64,000 nt of DNA, from assembly GCF_046119375.1 (NCBI RefSeq), contig NW_027362797.1, forward strand, positions 12,400,001-12,464,000. The letters are read 5' to 3'. The position numbers were made by a program, and so were the translations under genes. Position 1 is the stretch's first letter. Every line of letters begins with the position of its first letter. The notes beneath the pieces are model-generated. The model saw nothing but the letters and a program-made list of their open reading frames with translations, made no database searches and had not been told where the DNA came from. Below are positions 24,713 through 64,000 of the stretch, one piece after another. This DNA is from Phyllobates terribilis (Eukaryota).

Positions 24713-25930
24713 TGTGACGCCTCTACTCGAAAGCCCTTTTCTTTACCCTGGGAGATGGGGGACTCAGAGTTGGGTCCCATGATGGAGAGATGGGGTGCAG
24801 CCGTGGCCCGGACCCGACCCATGCTCAGGGCCGTCACAATTAAAAGGATGGTGTGGGCTTATCCGGGTTGAGTGGCTGATTCCGACTACGCCACCTGTGG
24901 CACCTGGTGAAGGCCACCAGCAGTCCGCTGAGGCATGGTGTTATGGCGGCCCAAAGTTATTACTACTCCCCACAGGCGGAGCAAGGCCTCAGGGCAGAGA
25001 GACAGGATGACAGGGGTAGTAGTAGAGGAGTACGGGTGCCGCGTCGTGCGGTGTAGCGCAGAATAAACAGTCCGGAGGCCGTAGGGGTGAACTTCCAAGG
25101 CTTTACTCACATTAGAGATGGCAGAAGGAAGGTGACTCCCTGCTCCCCGCGGAGTCCTGCGGTCACCAGGGACGGGGGTCCTACTACCTCCGAGCAAGTC
25201 CAGCATTCAATCAGGACCCCGCACCAGAGTGTTCCTGAACTACAGACCGTATCCTTTCCTGTCTGTGTGTGTAGATAGGCCGGGTCTCCCTCTGAACTCC
25301 TCTCAGAAAAAGGGCACGGGTGGCAGCTCCGCTCCTTCCGATACCCGGTGGGATCCTGACCAGGACATGGAGTAGCAAGGTTGGGTGTCGGGGGCCGGTA
25401 CCCCTCTTGCAGCCGGACTCCCACTGAATATATTAGGTTGGCGAGGACAGGTGGCGTATACCGCTCCGTCTGCATCCTCCCTGGGATCCATTTGCTGTGG
25501 AGCTACAGGTCCACACAGGATCCACTTTCAGGGTAGGAGATCACAGTACATGACAGCCAGGCAAGATGACTAACCAGGACCGTCAAAGACCGGACTACCA
25601 GGACCAGCGAAAGACTAGATTCCCAGGTCCAGCGAAAAGACCACGAACCAAGATGGCTTTTTATTAAATATGAATTTTAAGATGTCACTAAATTGTAAGT
25701 CCTCCACCCTCACCCACTAACTGGTTCCCCTAACTCTTGGTTCACCAGTATCCCTGTAACCAGGAGGGCAGCACCTAGTGCATACTAGCCCCCTCTGGTG
25801 GAGAAATATGGTGTTGGATGCTAAGGTTGGGTCCCGACCATGACACTGTTCTTACCTCAGAGGAGGGACACTACACTCCATTAAAGAAGTGCAGCATCCC
25901 TGTGGCGGTCGAACCCTCAGGGGCGCCACA
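24713..25930 (-). mobile_element. Gypsy solo LTR (1218 bp)
   Basis: Termini tgtgacgcc...ggggcgccaca. 4-bp TSD AAGC (24709-24712 / 25931-25934). Orientation inferred from motifs shared with the other LTRs. Confidence 0.9.
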
Positions 25931-39552: not shown

Positions 39553-41115
39553 TGTGGTACATCGCTCACTTAGCTGCACATGGAGGTAGACACAGGTAAG
39601 CTGTCTCTTTAAATCTCTTGTTGGTTTATTAAAATGCGGCATAAACCAACATTGAGTCCATAAAAATAATCACGGCCCTTTGGTCAAAATAGGAAAGCAA
39701 ACAAAGCAAAAGTGGTCATGCAAAACACAGTCCTTGTGTTAGCAGGGGTTCACCTGCCCAGAGTTTAGCAACTCCACATGGTTCTGGTCAGCTCGACACA
39801 ATCATGTCTGGAGTTAGTGACTCGCCCCCTGGGCTGTGGGGCACTCGGATCCGGGCAGTAGGGGAACGATGGGAGTAGTAGTGGCAACCCGGTTCCGTGG
39901 CTCAGGGTGGTCAGGCCAGTGGTAGTCCGTTATGTGCTGTTGATTATGTCCGACTACGCCACCCGTGGATTTGCGGTCATTAGGAACCGCCGCTGCAAGG
40001 CAGACCGCTGGGGCTGATGATGTATGCAGCTGAGATGGTGTGACTCCCCACGGGAAGAGTGCGGCCCCAGGGCAGTGTAGTGGATGTTGGGAGTGATGGT
40101 AGTGAGAGTCCCAGTGCTGATAGTGCTGGAGGAGCAAGGAGCACGCAGACAACAGGTTGCAGTCCAGGGTCTTTACTAGAACAGGTAAATTGACCCACAA
40201 ACAGTCCCAGCTAAGAGGGGACCTGGATGTCTGAGAGCAACAGGGAAATTGGCCCTGGTCAGGGTGAGGGTGTATGCCTACCGTGCTTTCTGTGCTCCTT
40301 CTGGCTATCTCCTCCTTATAGGGTAACAGCCCACGTTTCCGAGCTTTCCGTGTATTCTCGCCTGTATGGCCGGCAACGTGGGTTCCTTTCTGCTCCCAGC
40401 CTTGTACGGCTTTGCTGGTCCCTTCTGTTGTGGCAGGGCCTCCAGGCTTCTTAGGCCAAGGAATATACAGTCCCCTGCGGACTGGTTCTCTGCTGGAGGA
40501 TGTGGAATCCTCCCAGCCTCAGACACCAAAGTCTGGTAAATTAAGTTCGTTATCTGCCAAGACAGGCTCACTTCGCCTCTTGTCTCTGGCTTGTGGCTCT
40601 CCTACTGCCACACTTCCTCTTAGGTGCAATACAACTGTCCCTCTCTGCTCTGGGACCTGAATCCTGAGACAGGTCGTCCAGCTCTCCCTAACCCTGCCCC
40701 CAGCACCAGCTTTTATAGGGGCAGCCAGCTCCCCCTACTGGCCTGAGACAGGAGGTACTGCATGCTAATGTTCCCCTGACTAGAGAACCTCCCCCTTGCT
40801 CTCAGACACAGCTTTATTACATTTTGTGGCATCCAGGCCAGGGTGACACATTAGCATCCCCAGACTTACTGAACTGAATGCCTCAACAGGTCGAACATTT
40901 AAACCCCAGACCACACCCTGGGGTGGAGATATGGTGAACGACCTCCCACCTGCTCTATAGTCGTTCACCAAAAAAAATGGCCCATTTAAATATGGCTGAT
41001 TAATCCTCTCAGCACATAACATGCAGGAGAAGACTTCCAGGTTTCACATCACTGAAACTAATAGGCTCAGTGAAACATATCTCCCCTCCAGCACTCTGCA
41101 AGTGACTTTGTCACA
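39553..41115. mobile_element. Solo LTR (~526 bp net) of a different family, interrupted by a Gypsy solo LTR
   Basis: tgtggtac...ctttgtcaca with 4-bp TSD TCAC (39549-39552 / 41116-41119). Confidence 0.75.
39818..40850 (-). mobile_element. Gypsy solo LTR (1033 bp)
   Basis: tgactcgccccc...ccagggtgacaca with TSD TTAG (39814-39817 / 40851-40854). Its left part is similar to 44851-46170. Confidence 0.92.
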
Positions 41116-42079
41116 TCACATATAGAGTCTCTCCTACAGTGTAATCACATATAGAGCCCCCCATAATATAATAACATATAGAGCCCCCCATATTGTAATC
41201 ACATATAGATGTGTGGCACCCCAGGAGTCCGGTTGCCACAGTGGCATTGGCTCCCTCACAGAGGGTGATGCCATGCCTGGAAGCAAGGAAGGGTCCCCTA
41301 ATCAGGTTTGCCAGCATACAACACTTTCCTGGCTCCAGACCAAAAAGGGGAGCCCCTCCCCTTTACACTGGAATCTGGAGGCGGGGTTAATAAGCGTGAG
41401 TTGAGAGGAGTTGGAGAAAGGAGGACAACGAGGAAGGACTTGGGGAAGGGAGCTGTGAATAAGCTCGCCCCAGAGGGAAGCGCAAGTGGGAGCGACACTT
41501 AAGGAAGGCCCGAGCTGCCTGCCATACAGGTGAGGAAAAAGACGCTTTACTCAGGGACGAGGGCCGCAGCATAGCTTCAAGCAGCAGGGCCAACGAGAAT
41601 AGCGCAGAGGGAAGGCCTACAACTCCACCTGGTGAGGTGGATCCCCAACTTGGTTCCAGGTCGCCCAGACCTCTACTACCAGCTAGTACCCGTGCCCCGG
41701 TCGGCTTAACAAACCACAAGTAAAGATAAGAGGAAACCGCCATTAAGCTGTGGACTGGTCATTATCTGCGCCATCACCTGCATTACACCGCACCAACAAC
41801 ATCTACCTCCACAATTCTACATATACTGCCCTGGAGCTTAGCTCTGCCTGTGGAGAGCTGAACCAACTCTGCTGTGTCACCACCAGCTCCAGTGGATCTG
41901 CACCGCAGTGGTGGCCCTATATAGCCGCATACCACAGGTGGCGTCACGAACATTATCTCCAAAAACTTTATTCACCTTTTACTTTCCCTTTAATTAACCG
42001 GGTCACTGCCACCGTGACATCCCCCAGCATCGACCGGCCCGGATACCGAGTACCCCACGGCCCAGGGGGCGCGTCAACC

Positions 42080-42097
42080 TGGCGTCACGAACAGGAT
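42080..42097 (+). promoter_or_regulatory. Primer-binding site for tRNA-Ser(CGA)
   Basis: TGGCGTCACGAACAGGAT lies 3 nt after the LTR end and equals the complement of the vertebrate tRNA-Ser(CGA) 3' end as recalled. Confidence 0.85.
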
Positions 42098-42298
42098 AAA
42101 CAAAGCCCGGTATAACTGGGTACTGTGTGCTATAGACTTTACTGAACTCTATCATCACGTCATTTGCCGTCAGCCGAGGGGAAGTTGGAGGCCCGATCCG
42201 GAACCACCGGGTAATCGATGCCTCTCGCCGGCAGAGCGGCATACTGGTACGTCAGCAGAAACCCAGGACCTGGCTGAGGTTCACTAGGGGGGAGGAAG

Positions 42299-43287
42299 AT
42301 GCCCAACCTGGGAGAGGATTCAGCAGCAGGCGCAGCCGCCGCCACTGTAAAGCCGTTATCAATGCCATATATACCAGGTGCGGCGTGGTTGCCCTAGTAC
42401 TCAGGGGAGTCGCACACCCTAAGCGAATTTGAGGAGAGACTGCTCAGTTTGTTTCAAGTGTACCCCCTGTCTGAGGAGCAAAAAGTCAGCATCCTCATAG
42501 GCCAGCTAATCGGTGCAGCCCAGAGGGAGGTGAAGTCCAGGCCGGGCAGGGACAAAAGCACTGTTAAGGATATTCTGGCCCTGTTGAAGGAAACCTTTGA
42601 CACCCGCACAGCAGCAGAGATTTAAATGAAGTTCTACGGGTGCAAACAAAGGGTGCAGGACAGTGTACGGGACTATGCTCTAAACCTGCAGGAGCTGCGG
42701 GCCATTAAACAGGTAGACCCCTACAGTGTGCAAGACGAGGACAGATTGCTAACTGAGCAGTTTATCGAGGGGCTCCTGTCTAACGCTCACCGGACACAAC
42801 TGCGCATTATGGCTCTGCAAAACCCTGATCTGGACTTTGCGCAATTTAAAGACAGCAATCCGGGTGCTGCGAGAATCAAAGCCAAGTGGCACTGCACCCC
42901 TCCAGCGCCCAGCTGTAACATACCACCAGGAGGTGGCATCCTTTTCCCCGGCACCTGTGGAGGCTGACACGCAGACCCTAGATAATGACCCCTCTGCAGA
43001 CCTACGCCTTCAGGTCCAGGAGCTGACCAAAAGTATGGCTACACTAACCAAAACCGTGCAGGCCATGCAAGTGTCTCCAAAAGAAAGAATCCAGCTGGCC
43101 TCCAGTCCAGATGACGTCTCGTGGTGACGACAGAGAAGGATTCCACCGACCAGAGGGAGAAACAGCGATCGCTGCGACCAGGACTGACAACCCATCTGCC
43201 GTCGCTGTCAAAAGGCGGGGTACCTCGCAAGATTCTGCGATTTAAACGAGCAACCCCTGGGGCAGAGGGCCAACCCCCAGGAGTAAG
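42299..43287 (+). pseudogene. Gypsy A gag (PNMA-like capsid + zinc knuckle), with stops and frameshifts
   Basis: MPYIPGAAWLP*YSG...EQKVSILIGQLIGAAQREV..., RDYALNLQE, LLTEQFIEGL, and knuckle CRRCQKAGYLARFC ending at TAA near 43286. Confidence 0.85.
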
Positions 43288-44850
43288 ACGACCAGGCCCA
43301 CAGAGCTGGCGAGACAAGTACGTGGGAGGACGACCGGTCCTACCTGGCGTGCTTGTTGGCATCTCGATGAATGCGGTGCTGGACACTGGTTCCCAGGTGA
43401 CAACGATGCCACATATCCTTTATAAATGATACTGGACTGATTCAGACATTACCCGCCGTCCAGATGAACATATTAACATCTATGCCAGCAATGGTCAGCC
43501 CTTGCCTCAGGTGGGGTATAAAGAGGTGACCATAAAGGTTGGCCGAGTAGAATTGCTATCACAAGGGATGATTATTGTTGATATTGATCGCCGAGAAAGC
43601 CATCCTATGATAACCTTAGGCACCAATGTGATAGAGAATTGTCTTGGGGAAATTATTGTTTTGTTGCAACAGGTCGCAGAGTCTGCCAGCTCTGGTCAGC
43701 AGCGAGTTCTGCAAAAGGAGATCAAACCCCTGATGCAGAGACAACAGGTAGAGCTGTCTGGAGGAGAAGTCGGCATTGTCAGAATGAGTGATCCATTTCC
43801 CATTGCAATGCCCCCTAGGAGTGAAATGTTAATATGATGTCGGGTAGCCATAGGTCTCAGGGGTCAAGATTATCAGGTCCTGGTAGAACCCGTGTACTCT
43901 GATAGTAGGCCCACCATCTTGACAGCCAGGGGGTAGTCGATGTCCGCAAGAGGAGAGTACCGATACGCGTCCTGAATTGTGGGAAGAAAGATGTCCATTT
44001 ACCCCGGTATGCTACCCTTGCTAAGTTATTCACTGTCAGTAACAATGCAATAAAGGCAGTGGAACCCTTGCCTCCGTCCGAACAGGCGGAAGACAATGGC
44101 CCCAAGGGTCAGATGGAGGATTGGTGTCAGAAGCTACAAGTAGGCACTGACTCAACCCCTTTGCACCAAAAGCATGGAGTATACCTGGTAGTCCAAGAAT
44201 ATGAGCGAGTCTTTAGCAAACACCCACTAGACTTTGAGCAGGTAAAAGGGGTCCAACATCATATCCCCACAGGAGATCATCCCCCCATTAAAGAGAGGTA
44301 CCGGCCTGTACCACCAGCTCACTATCAATGTGCCAAAGGACTGTTACAGGAGATGAAGGAGGCTGGGGTAATCAGAGATAGTTGTAGCCCCTGGGCAGCT
44401 CCATCAGTCCTCGTTAGAAAGAAAGATGGTACAATGAGGATGTGTGTTGATTACAGGCAGATTAACCGCATTACACATAAGGACGCCTACCCATTATCCA
44501 GAATTGAGGAATCATTAGCTGCACTGAGATCTGCTATCTATTTCTCCACTTTAGATCTCACCAGTGGGTATTGGCAGGTTTCTGTGGCAGAGGCGGACAG
44601 AGACAAGACCGCGTTTACGACACCAATGGGCCTCTGCGAGTTCAACTGCATGCCATTGGGGCTCTGCAATGCCCTGGGAACTTTCCAGCGGTTAATGGAG
44701 TGTTGCCTAGGACACAAAAACTTCGAAACCATTCTGCTGTATTTAGATGACGTAATCGTCTACTCAAAGACGTACGAAGATCACCTGGAGCACCTGGCCA
44801 AAGTGTTCGAAGCCCTATCTGGTTATGGCATGGAAGTAAAGCCGTGCAAG

Positions 44851-46170
44851 TGACTCGCCCCCTGGGCCGTGGGGCACTCGGAGCCGGGCAATCGGGAAAC
44901 GATGGGGGTAGTAGTGGCGACCCGGTTCCGTGGCTCAGGGTGGTCAGACCAGTGGTAATCCCTTTATAAGTTTTAAGCGATGTCCGACTACGCCACCCGT
45001 GGATTGCGGTTATTAGGAACCGCCGCTGCAAGGCAGACCACTGGGGCTGATGATGTATGGAGCTGGGACAGTGTGACTCCCCACGGGAAGAGTGCGGCCC
45101 CAGGGCAGTGTAGTGAATGGTGGGAATGATGGTGGTGAGAGTCCCAGTACCGGTAGTGCTGGAGGCGCGAAGGAGCACACAAACAACAAGTTACAGTCCA
45201 GGGTCTTTACTCACAGTTCATTTGTTCCGGGTCACTTCTGTCAGCAGTGACCGCTCGAGCCGTGCTGCGTCCACCAGGTGTGGGGCTCGGTCAACTCCCA
45301 GGCAGCTCAGAGGTATGGCTCAGGACCCCCTTCAATCCTTCCTCTAGCCTGCCTCACCAGTGACCCACTTTTGTCCATCTGCCGCGGATCTGCGCGGGTA
45401 AACGTGGGCCCCGTTCCCCGCTGTCCTTCATGGTGCCTTCCTAGCAGGTTTGAAGAGGTGCTGCACCAATAAATGGTCACAGCCTCCAGTCTTTGGCTGA
45501 GAGTTGTTTCACCTCCACCAACTTGGGATCCGGTACCCTTAATCTGCCTGACCCTTCACCCGGTATTCTCGTGGGTTCTTAGGGTCCCTTCCACCTTCTT
45601 GTTCCTGAGCCCCTCTGTTCCTCTGTCTCTTCTTCTCCTCTTTTCTGCTCCTCCTTCTTCTCCTTTCCCGTGGAGCTGGGCTGAGAAGGAACCACAGCTC
45701 CCCTTCACCTCCTCTCTCTCTCCACTCTACTCCTCGGCCTTTCTCTAGGCCCACTCTGGAGTAGAGCTCCTACAGAGCCTCTACTCCCTGTCTTCTCCTC
45801 AGTCTGCACAGACTGACTGAACTCCACCCAGAGCTAAGATGGTGCCCACTTTTTATACCTCCCTATAGCCATGAGCCCAGGTGACCAGCAACCAATGGGC
45901 TCCTATCTACGCTCAGGAACCAACCCCTATCTGCTCCTACATCACTGGGTTTTCCTCCCCCCTCCCCACTCCAGCCAGGGACATGGTCTGTCGTACCTTC
46001 ATTTCTGTCTAATGGTAGTACCGTTGAGCTCTCCCTCGGAAATGGGGTGAGTGTGCTGTATGCAGCTAACTGAGCCCTGGTCCATACTCCATCCTTACCC
46101 GGGAGTGGAATACCACACCTCTGGCAGAGGTGCAATACCCCTGTAGCGGCCAAGCCCTCGGGGCGCTACA
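44851..46170 (-). mobile_element. Gypsy solo LTR (1320 bp) inserted in the RT of Gypsy A
   Basis: tgactcgcccc...ggggcgctaca with TSD CAAG (44847-44850 / 46171-46174), splitting KPCK|CHLLKPK. Confidence 0.93.
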
Positions 46171-46874
46171 CAAGTGCCACCTGTTGAAGCCCAAGGTGCA
46201 GTACCTAGGTCATGTGGTAAGCGCCGAAGGTGTAGTACCAGACCCTGAAAAAGTCACCGTGATCAAGGTCTGGCCAAGACCCTCCACTATCAAAGAAGTG
46301 CGGCAGTTCCTCAGGCTAGTAGGCTACTACAGGAGATTCATCAAGGGTTTCACCAAGATAGCAGCAACCATGCAGGACCTCTTAGTGGGCCAGTCAAAGA
46401 GGGCCAAGATCCCGAATCCTCCGTTCAAATGGGGTAAACCAGAAGACGAATCCTTCACTCGACTGAAAGTGGCTCTTACGGGAGACGAAGTCCTGGCCTA
46501 ACCCGACTATGGCCAACCCTTTATACTCCATATGGATGCCAGCAACGTAGGATTGGGAGCGGTGCTGTCCCAGGTACAGCAGGGCAGAGAGAGAGTGATT
46601 GCCTATGCAAGCAGGAAGCTCCGTCCCACGGAAAGGAACCCCGACAACTATAGTTCCTTTAAGTTGGAGTTTTTAGCCACAATCTGGGCTGTAACAGAGC
46701 GCTTCAAACACTACCTCGCCTCCTCCAGATTTACAGTCTTCACAGATAACAACCCGCTGACGCACCTGGAGACTGCAAAGCCTGGTGCCGTAGAACAACG
46801 ATGGATGGCTCGACTGTCCAACTACGAGTTTACCATCAAGTATCGGGCAGGGCATAAAAACGCTAATGCTGATG

Positions 46875-48121
46875 TGTGGCGCCCCTGAGGGTTTAGTCGC
46901 CACAGAGGTACTGCATCTCACCCAGAGGTGTGGTATCTCAATCTCAGGTAAGGATAGAGTGCTGCCCAGGACCCTAACACCCCCATCCAACACTACACTA
47001 CTCCAGAGCAGCAGGAGGGGCAAGATGCGTCTCTTTTCCTGCTGAGCCCTGTCCCTGGCTGGAGTGGGGGGAAACAAGTGAAGGGGAACCATGTATTGGG
47101 TGTGAGTGGAGGAAGAAGATTAGGGGAGCACTTAGAAGGAGGATATAAAAGAGGGAAGCAATCTTGGGAATGTAGTCAGTCTGAGGAGAACAGTGAGAGG
47201 AGCAGGAGCTCAGCAGGAGCTCTGCTCAGGAGGAGGGCCTAGCCAGAGAGGCCCAGGACAGACTGAGGAGAAGGAGCAGGAAAAAGAGCTCCAGGAGCGA
47301 AGAGGGGATCCCAGGGGTACGGGCAGTGCTGGAGGCCACCCGTACGCCCGAATCTACCAGGCGGTGGAGGGATCGAGCCGCAGAGGGGACCGGCCCCTAA
47401 CCAGTGAGAATTATAAAGTTCAACTAGAAACCGGAGGCTTCTGTACTTTCAGGGTGCAGTTGCTACATCCGCACTCATTCTCTAAAAAGGTAGCCACATA
47501 GGTTCCAGGGAACTCCAGGTTGCCCAGAAAGATCCGAGGATACCGGCTTGGGACACTGTTTGCGAGGCGCAGGGCAGGAAGGGTGAGAGCCAGCGCAGGA
47601 AGATGGCTGAGAAGGGCATGTAGAACGGGGTCCTGTCAGGCACTCTTGAAATACCTGGGGGATTGCTGAACCCCTGCCCGGTGAACGCAGCACAACGTGG
47701 GAAGTTATGATCTGCAGTCGTAACCAGGAGCAAAGTGAGAACTGTGAGTAAACCCAGAAGACTGCACCCCACTGTCTCTGTGAATTATTGCTGCGCCATC
47801 ACCCCCTGCACTACACTGCCCAGCATCATCTACAACATCTATAACATCTACACTGCCCTGGAGCTAAGCTCTACCTGTGGAGAGCCAAACCAACTCTGCT
47901 GCATTAACAACAGCTCCAGAGGACCTGCTCCGCAGCGGCGGCTCCCTTTAGCCACATACCACAGGTGGCGTCACGAACTTTATATAAAAGCTATAAATCC
48001 CCTGTAAATAACCCCTTTTAATGACCACCCTGGGTCACGGACTGGGTCACCGCCACTGTGACATCTCCCCTAGCAACGACCGGCCCGGCACCGAGTAACC
48101 CACGGCCCAGGGGGCGCGTCA
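46875..48121 (+). mobile_element. Gypsy solo LTR (1247 bp) inserted at the end of the RNase H of Gypsy A
   Basis: tgtggcgcccc...ggggcgcgtca. TSD GATG (46871-46874 / 48124-48127) with 2 extra nt (TC) at 48122-48123; splits ANAD|ALSRMP. Confidence 0.9.
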
Positions 48122-50719
48122 TCGATGCGCTGTCCAGGATGCCCAACTTGCCAGATGGGGGAGAAGACCCGGAAAAGCTGGAGGAGATAGAGTTACCGGC
48201 TTTCCATCATCACGGGGTGACCCAGTACTCCCACTGTGTGAGGAACAAGCTCTCCGCCAACAGAGAGGCCACGTTTAACCCGTTGCCCCACCATGGATGG
48301 GCAGAGACGCAGGATAGCGTCCTGGCTGTCCACCTAGTAAAGGAGTTGCTGACACAAGCTGACTCACACCTTGATCCAGATGCTCCACAGGAGACCCAAC
48401 AGTTGTGGAAGGAGAAGGGCAAGCTGTTCATCTATGAGGGAAAGCTGTGTCGAAGAAGCATCAACTTCCGGACACACGAACTGGTCTGGCAGGTGGTAGT
48501 CCCGAAGCGGGATATGCCAATGGTCTTAGAGGCGTACTACGATGGAGCAGGACACTTCGGGTGGAAGAAGTTGTAAGTCCTGCTACGTGAGCGATTCTAC
48601 TGGGCTGGCATGAGGAAAGCAATCAAGGGATGGTGTCGAGAATGTGGTCCATGCAACCTGAGAAGGAAAGACCGTGATGGCCAGAGGGCTCCCCTGCAGC
48701 CCATAATCACTAAACAACCACTTGAACTGGTAGCCTTGGACCACATGAAGCTAGCCCCAAGCCGGTCAGGCTATGTCTACGCTCTCACCATAGTAGACCA
48801 CTAATCCCGATTCCTGGTAGTAGTGCCAGTGAAAGATCAGATGGCTAAGACGGTAGCCAAAGCATTTCAACAACACTTTTGTCACCCCACGGTTACCCTG
48901 AGCGAGTGCTTATCGACCAAGGCCCAGCCTTTGAAGAAAAAGTGTTTCAAGAATTTTTTAACTTGTATGGCTGCTAGAAAATAAGAACGATGCCATATCA
49001 TCCCCAGACCAACGGGTATTGCGAGAAAATGAACCAGGTGGTAATAGACCTGTTGAAGACATTGCCCCTTGAGGAACGTACCCTGTGGCCAGAGAAGTTA
49101 CCAGATTTGGTGGACCTATACAACCACATCTCAGTGAACTCCACCAACGGTACACCCGCTTACCTGATGAGAGCAAGACCTGGCAAGTAACCCATTGACT
49201 TAGAAATTGGGAGTTTTAACACCTGAAATGACATCACCAGATGCAGACTGGGATACGAAGCGGCAGCAACAATACCGCAAGGTGCAAGAATGTGTGGAGA
49301 GAAGGTTGTCCCAGGCAAGACAGTAGAAAACTTATAATCAGCACGCACCTGCAGTTCCCTTGTCACCAGGAGAACAGGAACTCAAAAGGAAAAGATGAGT
49401 TCACAAATTAGATGATCAGTGGGAGGTTGAGCCATACACCATCTTACCATCAAATTTTGACAACACCAAGGTGTGCCTCATCAGTAAAGATGGAGGAGAG
49501 ACATCAGCGGCAGTCTCACGAGACCACCTGAAGATATGCCCTGATCAATTGAGACACAAAGAGGAAGATCAAAACAGCCCCCATCACACAGAAAAGAAGG
49601 AAGAGACGGTCCAAACCATCCTTGGAGAATTTCCCCGGTCCTGGACGCAGGTGAATCAAGCAATCGTGGTATCTGTCTTAACCTTTCCCCAAGTAGCCTC
49701 ACCGGAAGCCACAGAGACTCTAGAACAGCAGAGAGACCAGTCAGCCCCAGAAACAGATGCTTCATCAGCAGCGGATCAGGAGAATCTACCCCCTGCTAGT
49801 GGTGAATCTGTCATACCCATGGTGAGTTTAGGAGTTCGCAGAAGGCGATCTGGTATACCAGTACTACGTAGGTCCACAAGAAGCGTAGTGAATAATGCAA
49901 CCACCATACCAGCGGTAGACACTAGAGACCCGGGTAGGTCATTTGCAACAACTGTACTGCATAGATCAACCTATAGTACCATAGGTCAGCTCCCTGCCTG
50001 TTATAGGGACTAAGAAGTAGTAAAATAATAGTATATGGTGTATAGTTGTAACCGTTAAGTAATCCTGAGTATATATAGTTATTCAATTTATGGACAAATG
50101 GACCACAGGACTAGGTGTGGTCAGTACAATGCTGAATAAAGTTGATTGTTGGCCTTGAAAATAAACCATAGGCGTGGCTGAAAACCAGGCCCACCAACAG
50201 GGTGCCCTGAAGTCACGCCAAGGGACGATACACGAAGTGGGTTGAGGCGGTTCTCACCAACCAACCTTCAGGTATCCAGAAAAAAAGTCAATTCCTGGAT
50301 TGTGGCGTAAAGACTAAGCGCCGCAGTGACTGCTACCAATTTATGTTGTGTTTTTGTGATTTTTGCTTTTTGAGACTTTGTAAACTATTTGTAATGTGAA
50401 TTGTTATTGTTGTTAATTGTTCAATTCAAAAGGTGTCCTCAGTCTGGGAGTACTGAATTTAACTAGGGGGGAATGTGGCGCCCTAGGGAGTCCGGTTGCC
50501 TCCCTCAAAGGGGGTGATGCCATGCCTGAAAGCAAGGAGGGTTCCCTAATCCGGTCTACCAGCATACAACCAGGGGTGGATTAAGAGTAGCAAGGGCCCC
50601 GGGCAGTTTAGAAGGCGCGGGCCCCCCCCCCACACCTGATTTATCACGTGACATGTCACATGATCCCCTGTGATAGATCATGTGATAGTTCACGGGAAAT
50701 TAATTTGGCACAATATTAA

Positions 50720-51122
50720 TTGTGCTGCCTCATCTGAGAGCAGCACAATATAGGGGCAGATACCCTGATTCCAGCGATGTGTCACTTTTTCAGCTGCTTG
50801 TCATTTTGAGAAAATCACCGTTTCATCTGCTGCAGATCTAGCAGCTCTCTGAATGCTGCGCTCTGTATAGCCCCACCCACACCACTGATTGGCAGCTTTC
50901 TGCCCATGCTCAGTGTACACAGAAATCTACTGATCAGTGATGGGGGTGGGGTCCTACAGAACTTACTAGTCATCTAGTGATAATTACCTTCTGACAAATC
51001 AATGATTTTATCAAAACAACACTAAGCAGCCCAGTAAGTGACACATTACTGGAATCAGTGCCTCTAACCCTACATTATGCTGCTCTCAGATTAGGTGGCA
51101 AAAACATGATGACAGATTCCCT
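50720..51122. mobile_element. Kolobok/T2-like MITE remnant
   Basis: Right end gacagattccct|TTAA and internal inverted arms (atctgagagcagca / tgctgctctcagat). The left end is missing. Confidence 0.6.
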
Positions 51123-51528
51123 TTAAAGGAGCTGTAAACACAAAAAAGTTTGTATTAAAAAAAATACAAGCCATTTGTGAAATTAACTTTTTTTCATTGT
51201 TAATTCACATTAGACTGTATCTTCAACACTTTTGTCAGCAAGTCTTATTACAGACTCTGAATAGGGCAGCTCTCTCCCTCTCCCTCAGCAGAAAGTCACA
51301 GCATGGTTAAAAAACGGGATCTTTTATGATTTTCTCATAATAAATAAAAAAGGACATGCAAGTCCTCCAAACTATTTTCCATTTCTCTATAGGGGTGGTC
51401 CTAAATCTTTCTTGTTCTTTAGTTGATCACATGTCAAAAAGGCAAAGCATTTACTATGAACTCGCCTAAAAAAATATACACTGGGAGAGTAATATCATCA
51501 TCTGCATGTAAATATTCCTTGACTCTAA

Positions 51529-51928
51529 GGGCTCGCTCACACTGTCGTATAACACGGCCGAATGCTAAGTGATGTTTTATCAGATAGGACTCGGCCCTAT
51601 GTTATACTATGGGACAGTGCAGATCTGCGATTATCGGCATGAGAAAATAATCTCATTCGATATTCGGACCATGTGCACCCATACAAGTCTATGGGTGCAC
51701 GTAAAACATTGGACTGCACACGGATGTCATCCAAGTGCAGTGCGATGAACACTCACAGAGACTATGGAGAAGATGGAGAAAGTAAGTTCTCCATCTTCTC
51801 CATATCTGTGCTGCGAGAGAATCGGATCACACTCAGTTGAAGCTCTGACAGAGTTTGAGCCAAGTGTCATTAGCATAATTGGCCCTATTCTCTTGCATGA
51901 GAGAATATATGGCTTAGTGAGTGGACCC
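51529..51928. mobile_element. PIF/Harbinger-like MITE
   Basis: TAA|gggctcgctcac...gtgagtggaccc|TAA. Confidence 0.75.
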
Positions 51929-52489
51929 TAAAACTGAATAGCAGTGACGGACAGGCACCTCACAAGCGGGATCCAGGTAGCTCTCAGATGTCATGTAGGT
52001 AGGGCTTCATTCCATGGGGTAGGGCTTAATTTCAAGGTATATAAAAAAATGGACTTTAAATAAAAATTAAATGAACACAAAAAGCACTAATTGAGTTATT
52101 TTTTTCGTATTTATGTTTGCAGCCCCTTTAAAAACCCTTTGAGGACCAAGGCACATATATGTCCCATAGTTTTAAACTGGAAAAAAATTTGATTGAATAA
52201 AATTTAAGGTCCTCGAAGGTTTAAGTAGGTCATAAATTCATACGAATACTTGCTCATACAATTGCACATGCCAAAAGATGAAGAAAAACAGAATCAAAAA
52301 TATGACATTAAGTGGAGCACTTACAGGTATTCAAGGTGAAAGAGACCAGCAAAGGCATCTTCTCGAATGACAGTAAATGAGTTAGAATTCAGCCAGCTGA
52401 AAATGAAGACAGCAGGTTAGAAGCGAACCAGACTTTATGGTGCTCAGAATTAGTCAAGCAGAATTTATTGACTGCTCTTGCAAAGCACT

Positions 52490-53380: not shown

Positions 53381-53389
53381 CGCACGCAG

Positions 53390-53899
53390 TCAAGCACACA
53401 CACAAACATATACAGACATATACATACACGCATAAACACATTTGAAACACAAAAATACATATAAACAGACATCACACAATCATACCTGCCCACACACACA
53501 CAAACAGACATCACACAATGATATCTGCCCCCCCCACACACATACAAACAGACATCACACAATGACATCTGCCCCCCCCACACACACACACACACAAACA
53601 GACATCACACAATGACATCTGCCCACACACACACACAAACAGACATCACACAATGACATCTGCCCACACACACACGCACATACAAACAGACATCACACAA
53701 TGACATCTGCCCACACACACACAGACATACACACACAAAAACAGACATCACACAATGACATCTGCCCACACACACACACACACACAAACAGACATCACAC
53801 AATGACATCTGCCCACACACACACACACACACAAACAGACATCACACAATGACATCTGCCCACACACACACACACAGACATCACACAATGACATCTGCC

Positions 53900-53930
<31 letters not shown>

Positions 53931-54238: not shown

Positions 54239-54317
<79 letters not shown>

Positions 54318-54922: not shown

Positions 54923-56200
54923 GCTCCAGTCCTCAGACTCTTCGGTGCAGCAGAGCAGGCCGGGTGCGCACTGCGTGACGTCACAGCTAGGAGACACGGG
55001 CGCGCACAGGGCCGTGTCTCCTAGCAGTGATGCAGCCGGGCCAGCACAGGGAAGTTAACTGCTGCAGTGCTGGCCCGGCCGATGAAGAAGTAGCGGCGTC
55101 CGCTGCTGGGGGAGCGGTACGGGGCCCCCCTCCCGCCACTGCTACCGGTATGTGCCGCGGCGGCCCGCACATATAATGAGGGCAATCCGGCATTAGACAC
55201 CTCGCCCAGAGCCGCGGGCCCTCTGGAGGCTCGGGGCCCTGGGCGGTCGCCCGGATTGCCCTCATTATAATCCGCCTATGCATACAACACTTTCCTGGCT
55301 CCAGACCAGAAAGGGGAGCCCCTCCCCTTTACACTGGAATTTGGAGGCGGGGTTAGTAAGAGTGAGTTAAGAGGAGTTGGAGACAGGAGGACGACGAGGA
55401 AGGACCTGTGAAAGGGAGCTGTGAATAAGCTCGCCCCAGAGGGAAGCGCAAGTGAACCGGACACCGGAGTCCATGGTTGTGGGGCACTGAAGGCCCAGCA
55501 GCTGAATGCGGAGGGCAGGAGACTGCAGGTCTCCTGGCCCCACCAGACACCCGGCGGCCCAGCAGCACCATAGGGCCCAGCCACGTGGGAGCGACACTTA
55601 AGGAAGGCCCGAGCTGCCTGCCATACAGGTGAGGAAAAAGACGCTTTATTCAGGGACGAGGGCCGCAGCATAGCTGCAGGGCCAAAGAGAATAGCGCAGA
55701 GGGAAGGCCTACAACTCCACCTGGCGAGGTAGATCCCCAACTTGCTTCCAGGCCGCCCAGACCTCTACTACCAGCTAGTACCCGTGCCCTGGTCGGCTTA
55801 AAAAACCGCAAGAAAAGATAAGAGAAAACCGCCATTAAGCTGTGGACTGGTCATTATCTGCGCCATCACCTGCATTACACAGCACCAACAACATCTACCT
55901 CCACAATTCTACATATACCGCCCTGGAGCTTAGCTCTGCCTGTGGAGAGCTGAACCAACTCTGCTGCGTCACCACCAGCTCCAGTGGATCTGCACCGCAG
56001 CAGCGGCCCCATATAGCCGCATGTGACAGGTGGTGTCACGAACATTATCTCTAAAAACTTTATTCCCCTTTTACTTTCCCTTTAATTGACCGCCTTGGGT
56101 CACGGACCGGGTCACTGCCACCGTGACATCACCCAGCATCGACCGGCCTGGCTACCAAGTACCCCACGGCCCAGGGGGTGCGGCAGATGCCCCCTGTAAT

Positions 56201-58382: not shown

Positions 58383-59764
58383 TGACGCGCCCCTGTGCCT
58401 GAGTCGCGCAGCGTTGCGCACGCGGGAGCCTACCCGGAGCCGGATCTGATAGGGGTAGTAGTCTCGTGGCGGTGACCCGGTCCGTGCCCAGGGAGTCAAG
58501 CTGAGTGGCAGTTTTTAGCAGAAGATGGTACGGTGTTCGACTACGCCACCCGTTGAATGCGGCTATGAAGCCGCCGCTGCAGGGCAGACCGCTGAGGCCG
58601 GTGGTAAGGTCGTGCAGCGTAGCTGGTAGAACCCCCAACGGGAGGGGTATGGCCTCAGGGCAACCGATGTGTTAGAAGGGGGTAGCAGGAACCACTCAGA
58701 GACGGTGCGGTGTAGTTCTGGGTCTTTACTGGTGACAAAGTAGACCCTCCCGGAGTACTGGCTAGCGATCGGGGCCTGGTCAGTCCGTGAGCTGATGGGA
58801 TCTCCCCTGGCCAGGCGGAGTTGTAGGCCTCCCCAACTAATCGTACTCTTCTGGCTACCTTGCTAGAGGCGGGTAAAAGTAGCCCACGTCCCTGAGTGTA
58901 CCGTGTGGTGCTCACCCGTATGGCCGGTGACTCGGGGCCTTTTGGTAGCTTCCGCTCCACGTCGCGGTGCTGGTCCCTTGCGTGTGACCGTGCCTTCGGG
59001 TTTCTTGGCCAGAGGACCTGAAATCCCCTGCCGGGCGGTTTCTGCTGCTGGGTAAGGATTAGTCCCCACAGCCTCGGACTCCGGGTCCGGTAAGAACTCT
59101 TCAATCAGGGCGAGCTCTACAGCTTCCAGCCCCTGACCTCTTTTAGTACAGCTCCCACAGAGCTCCTGATCTTTCTTTCCCTATAGCTGCTCCACTACAG
59201 ACCAGACTGTGTCTCTGTCTGTGTTCTCTCACTCTACTCACTAACCCTGCCTCAGCCCCAGCTTTATATAGGGGAAGTTCTTCCCCTCCCAGGACTGGGC
59301 AGGAGGTGTGGCATGCATAGGATGTCTGACCAGGAAACCTCCCACCTGCTCACAGACGTAATATTGCTATCACTGTGGGAACCAGACCCCTGGGGTGCTA
59401 CATTCCCCCCTAGTGAAATTTAGTACTCCGGGACTAAACATATTTTTGTAAAACATAACAAGTAAAAACAGAAACAGTACAATAAAGAAAAACACATTAG
59501 GATGGTCACGGCGTGTCCGCAACCGGGTGCAGTTTTTGAAGAAAACAAGGGTGTCCATTTCACCAAGAGACAGGGAGCCGTAACCAGATAGGGGTCTGTC
59601 CTACCTCGAGTCCTTAACAGTCTTTAGTCCACTCCTGGTTACGCTCCAACATATGTACAAAGGATTCCGGATAATCCTTAAATGACACCTATAAAATAAC
59701 TAAAAATACACAATTATTTACAGGCAACAATAAACAGGTAAATACAAATAAACAGTCTAAACAC

Positions 59765-62700
59765 TTAGATCCTCCAACGTACGGGTAACTGGCCTCTAGT
59801 GGCTCTAGTGGACCTACGGAGCTGACTGACTGGTCCTGAGCTACCAGGTGTAGGAGCTGTCAAAGGTAAACTGGGCAGCTGTCTACGGGCTCTTTGGCTC
59901 ACTAGGGGTACGGCAGGCTCACTATAAGCAGAGGGTTGATCCTCCTGGTCTGCTTGTGTGGGGTCTTCTGCCTCCTGGACCGGCTGCTCTTCCAGCTCTG
60001 CCTGTTTCTCCATAGGTACTTGAGATGCTGGTTGGAGGAAGGTGAGGACGGGTACCACAACTGCGCCATTGACTTGAGTCCAAGACCGAGGGAAGTCTCC
60101 GAGCACAGTACTAACCATATCTTCCCTTTCCTCTGCGGGTCGAGGGTCTTCTTGTTCTTCTTCAGGGCTTCGTAGCTGTTCGGGACACTTCTTCAGGTGA
60201 TCTCGGGAGACAATGGCTGTGGTTTCTCCTCCATCCTTACTGATTATGCAGACTTTCGGGTTCTCATGGCTTGAGGGCAGTACGGTGTACGGGTCCTTCT
60301 CCCACTGGTCGTCCAACTTGTGGAGGCGTCTCTTCCTCTTCAAGACCTGCTCTCCAGGTACCAGGGGAACAGCGGGAGCATACTGGTTGTAAGTCTTCTC
60401 CTGTCTTTCTCTAGCTTGACAGAGACTTCGCTCCACGCTCTCCTGTACTTTCCGGTACTGCTGCTGCCTTTCTGTGTCCCAGTCTGCTTCTGGTGAAGTG
60501 TCCTCGGGTGTCAGGACTCCCATCTCCAGATCAACAGGAAGCTTACCAGGTCTTGCTCTCATTAGGTAAGCCGGGGTACAGTTGGTTGAACCTACCGGGA
60601 TGTGGTTGTATAGGTCCACCAGATCAGGCAGTTTCTCAGGCCACAGACTGCGTTCCTCCAGGGGCAATGTTTTCAGAAGATCTATCACCACCTGGTTCAT
60701 TTTCTCGCAGAGCCCATTGGTTTGCGGATGATAGGGTGTTGTTCTTATCTTCCGGCAGCCATACAGAGTACAGAACTCCTGGAAGACTTCCGCTTCAAAG
60801 GCAGGTCCCTGGTCCGTCAGCACCTGCTCCGGGTATCCATGTGGACGGCAGAAGTGCTGCTGGAAGGCTCTAGCTGCTGTTTGAGCCGTTAAGTCCTTGA
60901 CCGGGACCACCACCAGGAACCGGGAGTAATGATCTACGATTGTGAGGGCGTAGACATACCCAGATCTGCTTGGAGCCAGTTTCACATGGTCCAGGGCTAC
61001 CAGTTCCAGTGGCTGTCGGGTGATGATGGGCTGCAAGGGAGTCTTCTGGCTGGCACGGTCCTTCCTTCTTAGGTGGCACGGTCCACAGTCTCTGCACCAC
61101 CTCTCGATGGTTCCCCTCATGCCTACCCAGTGGAACCGCCCGCGCAGCAGGAACTCCAGCTTCTTCCACCCGAAGTGCCCAGCTCCGTCGTGGTATGCCT
61201 CCAGTACCATAGCCGCGTCTCTTCTTGGCACCACTACTTGCCAGATCAGTTCATGCGTCCGGGAGTTAACCATTCTGCGGCACAACTTCCCCTTGTAAAG
61301 GAACAGTCGACTCTTCTCAATCCACAGTTGCTTGGCCTCCTCCGGAGCGTCTGGGTCAAGGCGGGCATCTGGCTGAGTCAGCATCTCCTTCACCAGTCGG
61401 ACGGCGGGGTCACTGTCTTGCGTTTCCGCCCAGTTGTAATGAGGTAAGGGGTTGAACGTAGCGGATTGCTTACTCCTTACACGGTGGGAATACTGGATAG
61501 TCCCATGCCGGTGGAACGCGGGAAGTTCAACCTCCTCCAGTTCCTCTGGATCTTCCCCCACGTCCGGTAGGTTTGGCATTCTGGAAAAGGCATCCGCGTT
61601 GGTATTGGAGCGTCCTGCCCGGTATTTGATTGTGAACTCAAAGTTGGACAGGCGGGCCATCCATCTCTGCTCCAGGGCACCGAGTCTTGCTGTGTCCAGG
61701 TGTGTCAACGGGTTGTTATCCGTGTACACGGTGAACCGGGAAGAGGCGAGGTTGTGCTTAAAGCGTTCGGTGACTGCCCACACCACTGCCAGGAACTCTA
61801 GCTTGAATGAGCTGTAATTCTCAGGGTTTCTTTCGGTGGGTCGCAGTTTTTGGCTGGCGTAAGCAATTACTCGTTCTTTCCCCTGCTGGATCTGGGACAG
61901 TACGGCTCCTAGCCCGATGTTACTTGCGTCGGTGTAGAGGATAAAGGGCTGGCTGTAATCCGGGTACGCCAGGATTTCATCCCCCGTGAGGGCCGTCTTC
62001 AGCTGGCGGAAGGACTCTTCTTCCAGCTTCTCCCATCTGAAGGGCGGCTTCTGGTTCTTGGCCTTCCTGGACTGGCCTATCAGGAGGTCCTGCATAGGAG
62101 CTGCCTTTTTGGTGAAACCGGGAATGAATCTTCGGTAGTAGCCTACCAACCCGAGGAACTGCCGCACTTCCTTTACGCTGGAGGGGCTTGGCCATTCCTT
62201 AATTGCGGTGATCTTATCAGGGTCGGGAGCCACTCCGTCAGCACTCACCACGTGTCCCAGGTACTGCACCTTTGGTTTCAGGAGGTGACACTTGGAGGGT
62301 TTCACCTTTAGGCCGTAGTTTGCCAGGGCTTCGAACACTTCTGCCAGGTGTTTCAGGTGGTCCTCGTAGGTCTTGGAGTAGACGATGACATCGTCCAGGT
62401 ATAACAGGACCGTCTCGAAGTTTCGGTGTCCCAGACAGCATTCCATCAATCGTTGGAAGGTTCCTGGTGCGTTGCAGAGTCCAAACGGCATGCAGGTAAA
62501 CTCGCTAAGTCCCATCGGGGTGGTGAATGCGGTCTTCTCCCGGTCCGCCTCTGCTACAGGAACCTGCCAGTACCCGCTAGTGAGATCCAAAGTGGAGAAG
62601 AAGTTAGCAGATTTTAAAGCAGCCAAAGACTCCTCTATCCTTGGTAAGGGGTACGCATCTTTGTGTGTGATACGGTTGATTTTCCGGTAATCTACACACA

Positions 62701-63901
62701 TTCTCATGGTGTTGTCTTTCTTTTTAACTAAGACTAGTGGAGCTGCCCAGGGGCTACAGCTATTCCTGATTACCCCAGCCTCCTTCATGTCTCTAAGCAT
62801 CCCCTTGGCGTGTTGGTAGTGTGCAGGGGGTACGGGTCGGTATCTCTCCTTTATGGGAGGATGGTCTCCCGTGGGGATGTGGTGTTCTACCCCCTTTACT
62901 CGCCCGAAGTCTAACGGGTGTTTACTAAACACTCTCTCGTACTCTTGAACCACCCGATAGACTCCCTGTTTCTGGTGTGAGGGAGTGGAGTCAGTACCCA
63001 AATGTAGTTGCTGACACCAGTCCTCTATTGTTTTCTTAGAGCCGTTACCTTCCTCTGGTTGAGATGGAGGCAAGGGTTCCACGGCCTGTACAGAATTCTG
63101 GTTTATGGTGAACAATTTAGCTAGCGTGGCATACTGGGGCAGGTGTACTTCTCTCTTCCCGATGTTTATTATGCGAACGGGCACCCTCCCATGGCGTACA
63201 TCAACCACCCCCCGTGCTGTCAAAATGGTGGGCCTACTGTGTGAGTAGACGGGTTCTACCATTGCTTGGTAGTCTCTACCTCTTAGACCAATAGCTGCCC
63301 GGCACCAAATCATCATTTCACTTTTTGGGGGCATGGCAATAGGGAAAGGGTCACACATTCTCACGCTTCCAATCTCACCACCGGAGAGTTCCACCTGTTG
63401 CCGCCGCATCAGTGCCCGGATCTCTTTTTGGAGCACTCGCTGCTGGCCGGAGCTGGCGTTCTTGGCAACCTGCTGTAAAATGAAAATCACGTCTGCAAGA
63501 CAATTTTCAATCACATTAGTTCCTAGCGTTATCTTTGGGTGACTCTCGCGCTTGTCAATGTCTACAATGATCAGTCCCTGTGCTGCCAGTTCGACTCTAC
63601 CGACTTTAATGGTCATCTCTTTGAATCCGATCTGTGGCACGGGTTGACCATTGCTGGCGATGATACTCAAGTCGTCGTCAGGGTAGCGGGTTATATCCGA
63701 GTCATTCCAGTACTGCTTGAAGAGCACGTACGGGATGGTGGTGACCTGTGACCCGGTGTCAAGTAGGGCACTCATAGGAATGCCATCCAGTACCACAGGC
63801 AAGACTGGACGTCCTCCCACATATTTGTCACGCCAGTTCGATGGGCCTGGTGATCTTATTCCTAGGGGTCGGCCCTCTACCCCAGGTTGTGCCAGTTTAA
63901 A
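59765..63901 (-). CDS. Gypsy B Pol polyprotein (protease, RT, RNase H, integrase), predicted to be entered by -1 frameshift
   Basis: 1351-aa uninterrupted ORF, open back to the slippery site at 63901. Motifs LDTGSQVT, YLDD, DASNIGLGAVL, HHCC (HDGAGH...CRDCGPC) and the D-D(35)-E core (VDHY, TDQG, GLCEKMN). Confidence 0.95.
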   Translation of the reverse strand, partial: FKLAQPGVEGRPLGIRSPGPSNWRDKYVGGRPVLPVVLDGIPMSALLDTGSQVTTIPYVLFKQYWNDSDITRYPDDDLSIIASNGQPVPQIGFKEMTIKVGRVELAAQGLIIVDIDKRESHPKITLGTNVIENCLADVIFILQQVAKNASSGQQRVLQKEIRALMRRQQVELSGGEIGSVRMCDPFPIAMPPKSEMMIWCRAAIGLRGRDYQAMVEPVYSHSRPTILTARGVVDVRHGRVPVRIINIGKREVHLPQYATLAKLFTINQNSVQAVEPLPPSQPEEGNGSKKTIEDWCQQLHLGTDSTPSHQKQGVYRVVQEYERVFSKHPLDFGRVKGVEHHIPTGDHPPIKERYRPVPPAHYQHAKGMLRDMKEAGVIRNSCSPWAAPLVLVKKKDNTMRMCVDYRKINRITHKDAYPLPRIEESLAALKSANFFSTLDLTSGYWQVPVAEADREKTAFTTPMGLSEFTCMPFGLCNAPGTFQRLMECCLGHRNFETVLLYLDDVIVYSKTYEDHLKHLAEVFEALANYGLKVKPSKCHLLKPKVQYLGHVVSADGVAPDPDKITAIKEWPSPSSVKEVRQFLGLVGYYRRFIPGFTKKAAPMQDLLIGQSRKAKNQKPPFRWEKLEEESFRQLKTALTGDEILAYPDYSQPFILYTDASNIGLGAVLSQIQQGKERVIAYASQKLRPTERNPENYSSFKLEFLAVVWAVTERFKHNLASSRFTVYTDNNPLTHLDTARLGALEQRWMARLSNFEFTIKYRAGRSNTNADAFSRMPNLPDVGEDPEELEEVELPAFHRHGTIQYSHRVRSKQSATFNPLPHYNWAETQDSDPAVRLVKEMLTQPDARLDPDAPEEAKQLWIEKSRLFLYKGKLCRRMVNSRTHELIWQVVVPRRDAAMVLEAYHDGAGHFGWKKLEFLLRGRFHWVGMRGTIERWCRDCGPCHLRRKDRASQKTPLQPIITRQPLELVALDHVKLAPSRSGYVYALTIVDHYSRFLVVVPVKDLTAQTAARAFQQHFCRPHGYPEQVLTDQGPAFEAEVFQEFCTLYGCRKIRTTPYHPQTNGLCEKMNQVVIDLLKTLPLEERSLWPEKLPDLVDLYNHIPVGSTNCTPAYLMRARPGKLPVDLEMGVLTPEDTSPEADWDTERQQQYRKVQESVERSLCQARERQEKTYNQYAPAVPLVPGEQVLKRKRRLHKLDDQWEKDPYTVLPSSHENPKVCIISKDGGETTAIVSRDHLKKCPEQLRSPEEEQEDPRPAEEREDMVSTVLGDFPRSWTQVNGAVVVPVLTFLQPASQVPMEKQAELEEQPVQEAEDPTQADQEDQPSAYSEPAVPLVSQRARRQLPSLPLTAPTPGSSGPVSQLRRSTRATRGQLPVRWRI

Positions 63902-64000
63902 GGACAGTACCTTGCCATATGTCCGGGTTGATTGCAGCGGCGGCAGATGGGTTGTCCGTCCTCGTTGTATCGGTCGCTGGGTCTTCCTCTGGCCGGTGGG
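63877..64000 (-). CDS. Gypsy B Gag C-terminus with CCHC zinc knuckle (partial)
   Basis: ...RYNEDGQPICRRCNQPGHMARYCPLNWHNLG*, a CX2CX4HX4C knuckle; stop at 63879-63877. Confidence 0.9.
   Translation of the reverse strand, partial: PPARGRPSDRYNEDGQPICRRCNQPGHMARYCPLNWHNLG

Follow-up and report, generated by a model that had tools for sequence, protein, structure and literature searches.

A conserved tRNA-Ser 3'-end match within the LTRs of Phyllobates terribilis Gypsy elements and its possible part in primer placement

Well inside their LTRs, the Gypsy elements analyzed here carry a conserved match of 10-13 nt to the 3' end of their own primer tRNA-Ser. This inner motif is a real, selected feature, and it is more structured and more widespread than the preliminary description had seen. 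Judging by the sequence match, the tRNA or a fragment of it probably binds at this site, and we tentatively propose that it does so without priming and thereby helps to capture or place the primer. A non-priming dock is suggested because the site changes together with the primer-binding site (PBS), because a predicted helix ends flush against it, because the true PBS is set off by a spacer, and because products of priming at the inner site are almost absent.

Host elements and the inner tRNA-Ser match

The window, i.e. the whole 64,000-nt stretch of P. terribilis DNA that was analyzed, holds elements with an RT-RNase H-integrase pol, TG...CA LTRs, a PPT, a PBS and 4-bp target duplications, as is typical of Ty3/Gypsy LTR retrotransposons. 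Their pol was 97% identical to P. terribilis proteins, mostly 57-79% to those of other frogs and 51-61% to those of teleosts, and relatives of the elements encode a PNMA-type Gag (PF14893). Element A spans 41212-56185, is flanked by the target duplication GATG on both sides and has other LTRs inserted within it. The positions of the LTRs and tRNA-matching sites are as follows.

41212..42076, plus strand: 5' LTR of element A (TG...CA), with the 4-bp target duplication GATG before 41212 and after 56185
55280-56185: 3' LTR of element A, a 5'-truncated copy paired with the 5' LTR at 41212..42076
41939..41951, plus strand: inner tRNA-Ser(CGA) 3'-end site, 13 nt
42080..42097, plus strand: true 18-nt PBS for tRNA-Ser(CGA), 3 nt past the terminal CA
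47966..47978, plus strand: inner CGA site in the LTR 46875-48121, which is inserted in the pol of element A
56031..56043, plus strand: inner CGA site with one mismatch in the element A 3' LTR, where the adjoining arm of helix P1 (see below) is likewise decayed
24882..24893, minus strand: inner AGA/TGA site in the solo LTR 24713-25930 (target duplication GCTT)
39950..39961, minus strand: inner AGA/TGA site in the solo LTR 39818-40850 (target duplication CTAA)
44984..44995, minus strand: inner AGA/TGA site in the solo LTR 44851-46170 (target duplication CTTG)
58537..58548, minus strand: inner AGA/TGA site in the Gypsy B 3' LTR (58383-59402)
59768..64000, minus strand: Gypsy B pol, with the domain order RT-RNase H-integrase

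The motif had been described in all seven related LTRs of the window, and it was found in each of them. The exact CGA-type sequence TGGCGTCACGAAC stood at 41939, at the true PBS (42080) and at 47966, while the copy at 56031, previously given as exact, reads TGGTGTCACGAAC with one mismatch. On the minus strand, the AGA-type motifs at 24882-24893, 39950-39961 and 44984-44995 were exact as described, and the one at 58537-58548 has one mismatch. Searching the window for the CGA type with up to two mismatches gave 4 matches against 0.71 expected, a number reached in 0/100 shuffles. The corresponding AGA-type search at two mismatches is weak by itself (6 found against 2.17 expected, 2/100 shuffles), and these sites were accepted despite this statistic because their positions are consistent: in all seven cases, the distance from the inner site to the LTR end that follows is 138-181 nt. 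The motif is present in solo LTRs and 3' LTRs alike, as had been claimed. The PBS that had been predicted for Gypsy B, TGGCGTAGTCGGCAGGAT, was indeed found after its 5' LTR, beyond the window (locus L031).

Gypsy B itself (L031-L032; window 58383-64000) forms a tandem array sharing LTRs, in the order internal region, LTR, PBS, internal region, and L032 has a further LTR and PBS. On the minus strand of L031, the gag-pol overlap just beyond the window contains TTTAAAC, a likely -1 frameshift heptamer. The family of the 24713-25930 LTR (L190-L199) has LTRs of about 1.3 kb ending in GTCACA and an internal region of often only 0.5-0.7 kb; these are non-autonomous elements that retain both tRNA sites. 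An ORF at 28068-29273 (minus strand), with an integrase core and an MLV-type C-terminal domain, is a fragment of an unrelated retrovirus-like element.

The match to tRNA is confined to the last 10-13 nt of the molecule, namely NCCA and the 7-nt acceptor strand plus up to two T-stem pairs. Agreement was near complete over 10-11 nt in the AGA type (n = 29; positions 1-10 in 27-29/29, positions 15-16 in 0) and over 13 nt in the CGA type (n = 30; positions 1-13 in 20-30/30, position 16 in 0), falling to 0-2 by positions 15-16, with an upward bias at the first positions, each site having been placed by its best 11-mer match. Immediately 3' of the motif, U5 was less conserved, the commonest letter mostly reaching 30-60% among representatives picked by the site; this comparison had been set as a check in the preliminary description. 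Like a PBS, the inner site is thus complementary to a host tRNA 3' end; unlike a PBS, it does not lie just outside the LTR and does not define an LTR end, being internal, and short LTRs are almost absent.

A match to host tRNAs had also been expected, and the genome does contain tRNA-Ser(AGA), Ser(TGA) and Ser(CGA) genes whose 3' ends correspond (20 genome places inspected, 6 of them tRNA genes). What we call the AGA type serves the AGA and TGA tRNAs both, which have a common acceptor arm. The first 10 matches of the tRNA-gene pattern were rejected as tRNA genes, being element PBSs extended with tRNA sequence, and most of the other matches were element PBSs with tens of extra tRNA bases. PBSs extended in this way show directly that these tRNAs serve as primers at the outer PBS. 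Many further copies (L130-L139, L173-L179, L182, L183, L185, L187, L189) have the PBS followed by a few to about 40 more tRNA-Ser bases, and these extensions look as if plus-strand synthesis had overrun its usual stop into the primer.

Co-variation with the PBS and occurrence beyond the window

Across the 10.6-Gb genome, 69,769 AGA-type and 8,117 CGA-type PBSs matched exactly. Where inner and outer sites were both exact, AGA/AGA pairs numbered 60,144 and CGA/CGA pairs 4,362, against 3 CGA/AGA and 4 AGA/CGA pairs. The same tRNA-Ser is therefore specified twice in 64,506 of 64,513 exact pairs, and the co-variation of internal and external sites that had been suggested holds, with the proviso that pair counts are non-independent events. 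The seven mixed copies look like recombinants between families. When 60 loci were chosen by the outer PBS alone, 59 had a concordant inner site and the remaining one lacked the region. Forty near-identical matches in the same genome, nearly all on five contigs and probably segmental duplicates, were not counted as independent copies. The region around 41800-42200 recurs about 30 times at 98-100% identity, mostly on contigs C37, C430, C320, C297 and C810, which suggests a large segmental repeat or assembly redundancy.

In a gag tree (45 of 125 cases), one change of tRNA type was needed. An LTR tree of 62 rows, kept after copies with deletions or too little flank had been dropped, needed two changes, though it is compatible with a single origin (p-AU 0.43). 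The huge concordance thus appears, from these trees, to reflect merely one or two evolutionary switches. The site is common to lineages whose Gag is about 37% and whose RT is about 79% identical. A neutral fossil is ruled out, because the site and the PBS switched tRNA type together.

A third tRNA type after the LTR end was sought and rejected: among 532 matches, each of the 30 inspected proved to be one of the two known PBSs altered by point mutation or deletion, or else a chance match in the flank. At L094 and L095, part of a CGA PBS is succeeded by the LTR end of an AGA family and then by a full AGA PBS, likely through a template switch at GCGTCA, which is common to the PBS and the LTR end.

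A metagenome scan for the AGA PBS returned 115 loci, corresponding to 40 distinct contexts in which a CA closely precedes the PBS, many being bacterial sequences matched by chance. Of these contexts, four (L245/L342, L254/L340, L317, L337) have an inner site of 10-12 nt at 37-86 nt upstream of the PBS; in the other 36, the inner match was at most 7 nt. The four LTR families are mutually unrelated, and one has a teleost-type Gag (L245, whose nearest named proteins are teleost PNMA-type Gags at 57-64%). In all four, a stem of 6-8 bp ends at the base before the site, compared with 0.8-6.3% of control positions, the search span for the stem having been chosen after the data were seen. The site never follows a CA in these families, and an AATAAA-type hexamer lies upstream. 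In a further Gag tree, the site occurs in two groups that are about 25% identical, beside 12 Gag-bearing Ser-PBS relatives that lack it. The tree would fit either two origins of the site or losses, long branches making the choice unsure. Since the 12 relatives do without the site, it is dispensable in sister lineages. Searches of viral contigs gave one chance-like match and 0 matches, and a scan of frog loci for other doubled PBSs gave tandem-repeat noise only.

Predicted U5 structure and the search for short LTRs

The seven bases before the inner site pair with a partner about 85-95 nt upstream to form a predicted helix, P1, around which the following elements are arranged in element A.

41719..41724, plus strand: AGTAAA, a likely poly(A) signal by its hexamer, which would put the inner site in U5
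41831-41837 with 41886-41892, plus strand: predicted helix P2 (4/7 pairs with two-sided changes, 97-98% of cells paired)
41841-41845 with 41854-41858, plus strand: predicted hairpin H1, the loop of which contains the P1 5' arm (3/5 pairs with two-sided changes)
41847-41853 (CCTGTGG) with 41932-41938 (CCACAGG), plus strand: predicted 7-bp helix P1, the last base of which is the base before the inner site
41871-41875 with 41905-41909, plus strand: predicted helix P3, nested in P1
41911-41915 with 41924-41928, plus strand: predicted hairpin H2, nested in P1

The P1 arms occur in the compensatory variants CCTGTGG/CCACAGG, CCCGTGG/CCACGGG and CCCGTTG/CAACGGG, with pair counts of 34/18 (UA/CG) and 44/7 (GC/UA) in 53 sequences. 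On 53 diverse LTRs, the structure comprised six helices with 97.1% of cells paired and two-sided changes in 14/29 pairs. Its covariation score was 0.323, while shuffles gave 0.173 and slid controls no more than 0.115, although the structure was proposed by eye from the same, related sequences, so the controls flatter it. The alignment holds 53 of 81 cluster representatives, after gag chance matches, truncated or deleted copies and some near-duplicates had been removed by eye. RNAalifold independently predicts P1, P3 and H2 and extends P1 into the site; P2 and H1 were not recovered by it, the 5' arm of H1 being paired with the site instead. H1 and P1 both covary and have no bases in common, and they could be alternative states. 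A 1-nt loop and a 7-bp stem, as in H1/P1, are typical of an H-type pseudoknot, and the covarying U5 domain may be pseudoknotted. In the window copy, which has a deletion in the downstream domain, folding was no better than in shuffles (z 0.45).

A poly(A)-type hexamer lies about 180-220 nt upstream of the inner site in 120/124 5' LTRs, and it is from this hexamer that the inner site would be assigned to U5. A second predicted U5 domain (window 41990-42076; L033-L092) is closed by CCCTGGG/CCCAGGG, swapped to CCCAGGG/CCCTGGG in 8 loci, and by TGAC/GTCA where the LTR ends; its 5' arm carries a deletion in the window copy.

The geometry differs between the two tRNA sites. A stem of at least 7 bp ends flush against the inner site in 50/59 loci and against the outer PBS in 0/59, and in 56/59 loci the true PBS follows the terminal CA after a mostly pyrimidine spacer of 3-9 nt. 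A gap of 2-10 bp before the PBS is described as common in gypsy-class elements in the available portions of PMC4139406. This CA-PBS spacer (window 42077-42079; L033-L092) was 79% pyrimidine, and the cDNA end would need trimming of variable length.

G-U cells (49) outnumber A-C cells (11) in the helices, which favors a structure in plus-strand RNA. This bias speaks against a role at the DNA level, in which the complement of the site in minus strong-stop DNA would mimic the tRNA end and pair with the PBS of a co-packaged RNA or with plus-strand PBS DNA at strand transfer. Such pairing would explain the co-variation with the PBS without a second tRNA, but a flush helix brings no obvious gain in DNA, and we regard this role as very improbable.

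The preliminary description had taken the CA before the site for a cryptic LTR end. This CA turned out to be part of the P1 arm that covaries with the partner upstream; it reads CG in 19/53 sequences and in most AGA families, and it is absent in 4/4 distant families. The inner CCACA was also said to mirror the LTR start better than the true end does. Over 10 nt, however, the true end matched at 7-8/10 in 6/6 LTRs and the inner CA end at 3-8/10, with two ties and never a better match. A cryptic att end, which should combine a conserved terminal CA with an inverted match to the LTR start, was rejected on both counts.

Priming at the inner site would yield 3' and solo LTRs that end at the inner CA. 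Short LTRs of this kind with their own 4-bp target duplication, which had been named as a possibility, were almost absent from the CGA-type groups examined, with one ambiguous case against thousands of copies that continue. One family group yielded 2 copies whose sequence departs from the LTR immediately past the CA, against 4,724 that continue; the five-place filter used here would, by our estimate, catch between roughly one in four and one in three true ends. An internal deletion accounts for one of the two diverging copies. In the other element (L210/L358), the 5' LTR is complete and the 3' LTR stops exactly at the inner CCACA, with flanks CAAA/CACA (3/4) inside a CA-rich minisatellite; rare priming at the inner site or a deletion between microhomologies would each account for it. 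A second family group had 238 copies with a non-G after the CA versus 11,562 with G, and 30/30 inspected non-G copies continue as LTR, being point mutants or carrying a small deletion. Routine alternative priming with short-LTR progeny is thus not supported in the CGA-type family groups, where such products are almost absent.

These counts bear on the idea that U5 absorbed an old LTR end and PBS, now a fossil or an alternative priming site. The order CA, GG, TGG in CGA families is the canonical att/PBS geometry, and L210/L358 has the 3' LTR end that this history would produce. Yet the CA belongs to a covarying helix arm that distant families lack, and a fossil would not switch its tRNA type. 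As the main function, this reading is largely refuted already, and we consider it the least probable of those discussed, although the site may still have originated by duplication of an old end and PBS.

Candidate mechanism, related systems and significance

The downstream domain holds a third motif, a 7-mer that is CCGTGAC-like in CGA families and GACTAC/GACTGC/GGCTAC/GGCTGC-like, with wobble variants, in AGA families. In element A, it lies as follows.

42007..42018, plus strand: TGCCACC (complement of GGTGGCG) overlapping CCGTGAC

Here, CCGTGAC is complementary to nt 1-7 of tRNA-Ser(CGA) and also to nt 5-10 of the inner site, and it co-varies with the tRNA type. The motif fitted nt 1-7 of its own tRNA better in 34/34 AGA and 15/19 CGA representatives, i.e. 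49 of the 53 anchored ones (13/66 representatives were unanchored, and the window copy was mis-anchored). By complementarity, it could pair with the freed 5' strand of the tRNA, and pairing with nt 5-11 of either site is just as conceivable.

A primer-loading role for the inner site, which we hold as a possibility somewhat short of even, could proceed as follows. In the 5' leader of the RNA, the NCCA of the tRNA would pair with UGGC and stack coaxially on P1, as in T-box discriminators. Branch migration would then open the 7-bp acceptor stem and displace weak cis pairings with the downstream (C/T)GCCAC motifs, after which the freed 5' strand of the tRNA may pair with the third motif. A helix or pseudoknot at the 3'-OH would block extension, and the tRNA would finally be handed to, or held beside, the 18-nt PBS, binding to which is 8-16 kcal/mol stronger by prediction (duplex energies for PBS and inner site of -33.9 versus -25.8 and -36.4 versus -20.7 kcal/mol). 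Binding of the tRNA, coaxial stacking, blocked extension and hand-off to the PBS are all inferred steps.

The same sequences can be read without any bound tRNA. As the inner site equals the first part of the PBS, any cis strand that pairs with one also pairs with the other, and co-variation is no proof of tRNA binding. The inner site could then be an intramolecular decoy or switch that absorbs cis strands complementary to the PBS (GCCAC, CGTGAC/GACTAC) and thereby opens or closes the true PBS. In pseudoknot-free MFE structures of elements A and B, a large part of the inner site is covered by GCCAC motifs lying downstream; cis complements of 5-10 nt occur in 59/59 loci (a raw count with no shuffle baseline), the third motif co-varies, and the RNAalifold extension of P1 into the site points the same way. 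However, such a switch gives no account of a site that starts exactly at TGG, flush to a helix, in five unrelated LTR sequences, and the order GCCAC then GACTAC cannot make one helix with one site. We therefore judge it unlikely.

Equally unlikely in our view is a regulatory sensor, in which uncharged tRNA-Ser or its 3' fragments would switch translation or packaging of the leader, or in which the site would titrate repressive 3'-tRFs from the PBS. Its geometry is that of the T-box, where UGGN lies flush to helix A1 in the available portions of PMC7583486, and alternative pairings exist. The weaker binding predicted for the inner site would make it a poor decoy, and an element gains little by keeping the target of a repressor. 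The site also has no match to the 5' seed of an 18-nt tRF, an argument weakened by the account in the available portions of PMC12853362 that 3'-tRF repression via the PBS can be seed-independent.

The T-box likeness can be taken further. A UGGN flush against a predicted helix is present in the frog and the distant LTRs alike. T-boxes, however, are bacterial, pair over 4 bp only and need Stem I, a specifier and Stem III, as far as PMC7583486 sets this out, whereas the 10-13 bp of the frog site would open the acceptor stem. Neither Stem I, a specifier nor the T-box consensus was found, Rfam gave no match at gathering score in the window, and on 41700-42200 it gave one chance hit only (E 4.5). 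By analogy, a T-box-like RNA module may have evolved in the LTR of an animal retrotransposon, possibly twice, as a pseudoknot stacking the 3' end of uncharged tRNA-Ser, with the leader selecting or loading the primer or switching translation or packaging by tRNA charging; this is a speculative reading, and a shade less likely still than the sensor and the switch. HDV-ribozyme, IRES and CRE (TGACGTCA-like) readings, judged by eye, were rejected: the helices follow another order, gag begins at a distance of hundreds of nt, and no likeness to CRE is seen in the AGA type.

To return to the non-priming dock, related arrangements exist in other retroelements. In FIV and HIV-2, U5 pairs with the 5' end of the primer tRNA, and the frog third motif may be of the FIV kind. 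Li et al. 1997 reportedly, by their title, describe a laboratory-selected HIV-1 isolate with a dual PBS matching different tRNAs. The frog elements likewise have two PBS-like sites on one RNA, but their inner site is natural, partial, directed at the same tRNA and fixed across lineages. The PAS, A-rich loop and tRNA-like element of HIV-1 are U5 aids to primer placement that must co-adapt when the primer changes, as described in the available portions of PMC11181671, and the inner site resembles them in this respect. None of the HIV-1, FIV or HIV-2 U5 elements duplicates the 5' part of the PBS or pairs with NCCA.

Bipartite or multipartite PBSs of Drosophila gypsy, Ty3 and Ty1 are also alike in placing a second tRNA-binding site on Ty3/gypsy RNA, going by what is available of PMC1635307, a site that is predicted in the present case. 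In the same source, Drosophila gypsy has a second 11-nt tRNA site near the 3' end of its RNA that pairs with the anticodon and T stems and is dispensable for cDNA synthesis. There, one tRNA can bridge both sites (PMC1635307, in part); in the elements studied here, the second site lies upstream of the PBS by 40-180 nt and relies on the tRNA 3' end that the PBS also uses, so that it would compete for the tRNA or take a second one. The inner site does not address a different part of the tRNA, as the second site of a bipartite PBS does, and the third motif alone could pair elsewhere.

Gypsy abundance in poison frogs has been reported, with no mention of the PBS in the available portions of the two sources (PMC6278860; 10.1101/2023.11.06.565769). 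In the literature covered, mostly open-access main texts, we found no account of the 5' part of a PBS being copied within the LTR, and Repbase or Dfam notes may hold one. The inner site is likely a variant of the auxiliary tRNA-binding elements of retroelements, and a non-priming tRNA dock would likely be an undescribed replication step. The choice and opening of an uncharged primer tRNA are understood mostly from HIV-1 and the yeast Ty elements, in which these tasks fall to proteins and to contacts with other arms of the tRNA.

For annotation, the motif is a warning that LTR ends in these families can be set wrongly by PBS finders, and a tRNA-end match is present in solo LTRs too. The candidate module is a short RNA of about 300 nt and is directly testable. 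If our reading is true, it would amount to RNA-encoded primer capture in a vertebrate Gypsy group that ranks among the most amplified, with about 78,000 exact PBS copies in this genome, and it would explain why primer switching is rare here, as three motifs have to change together.
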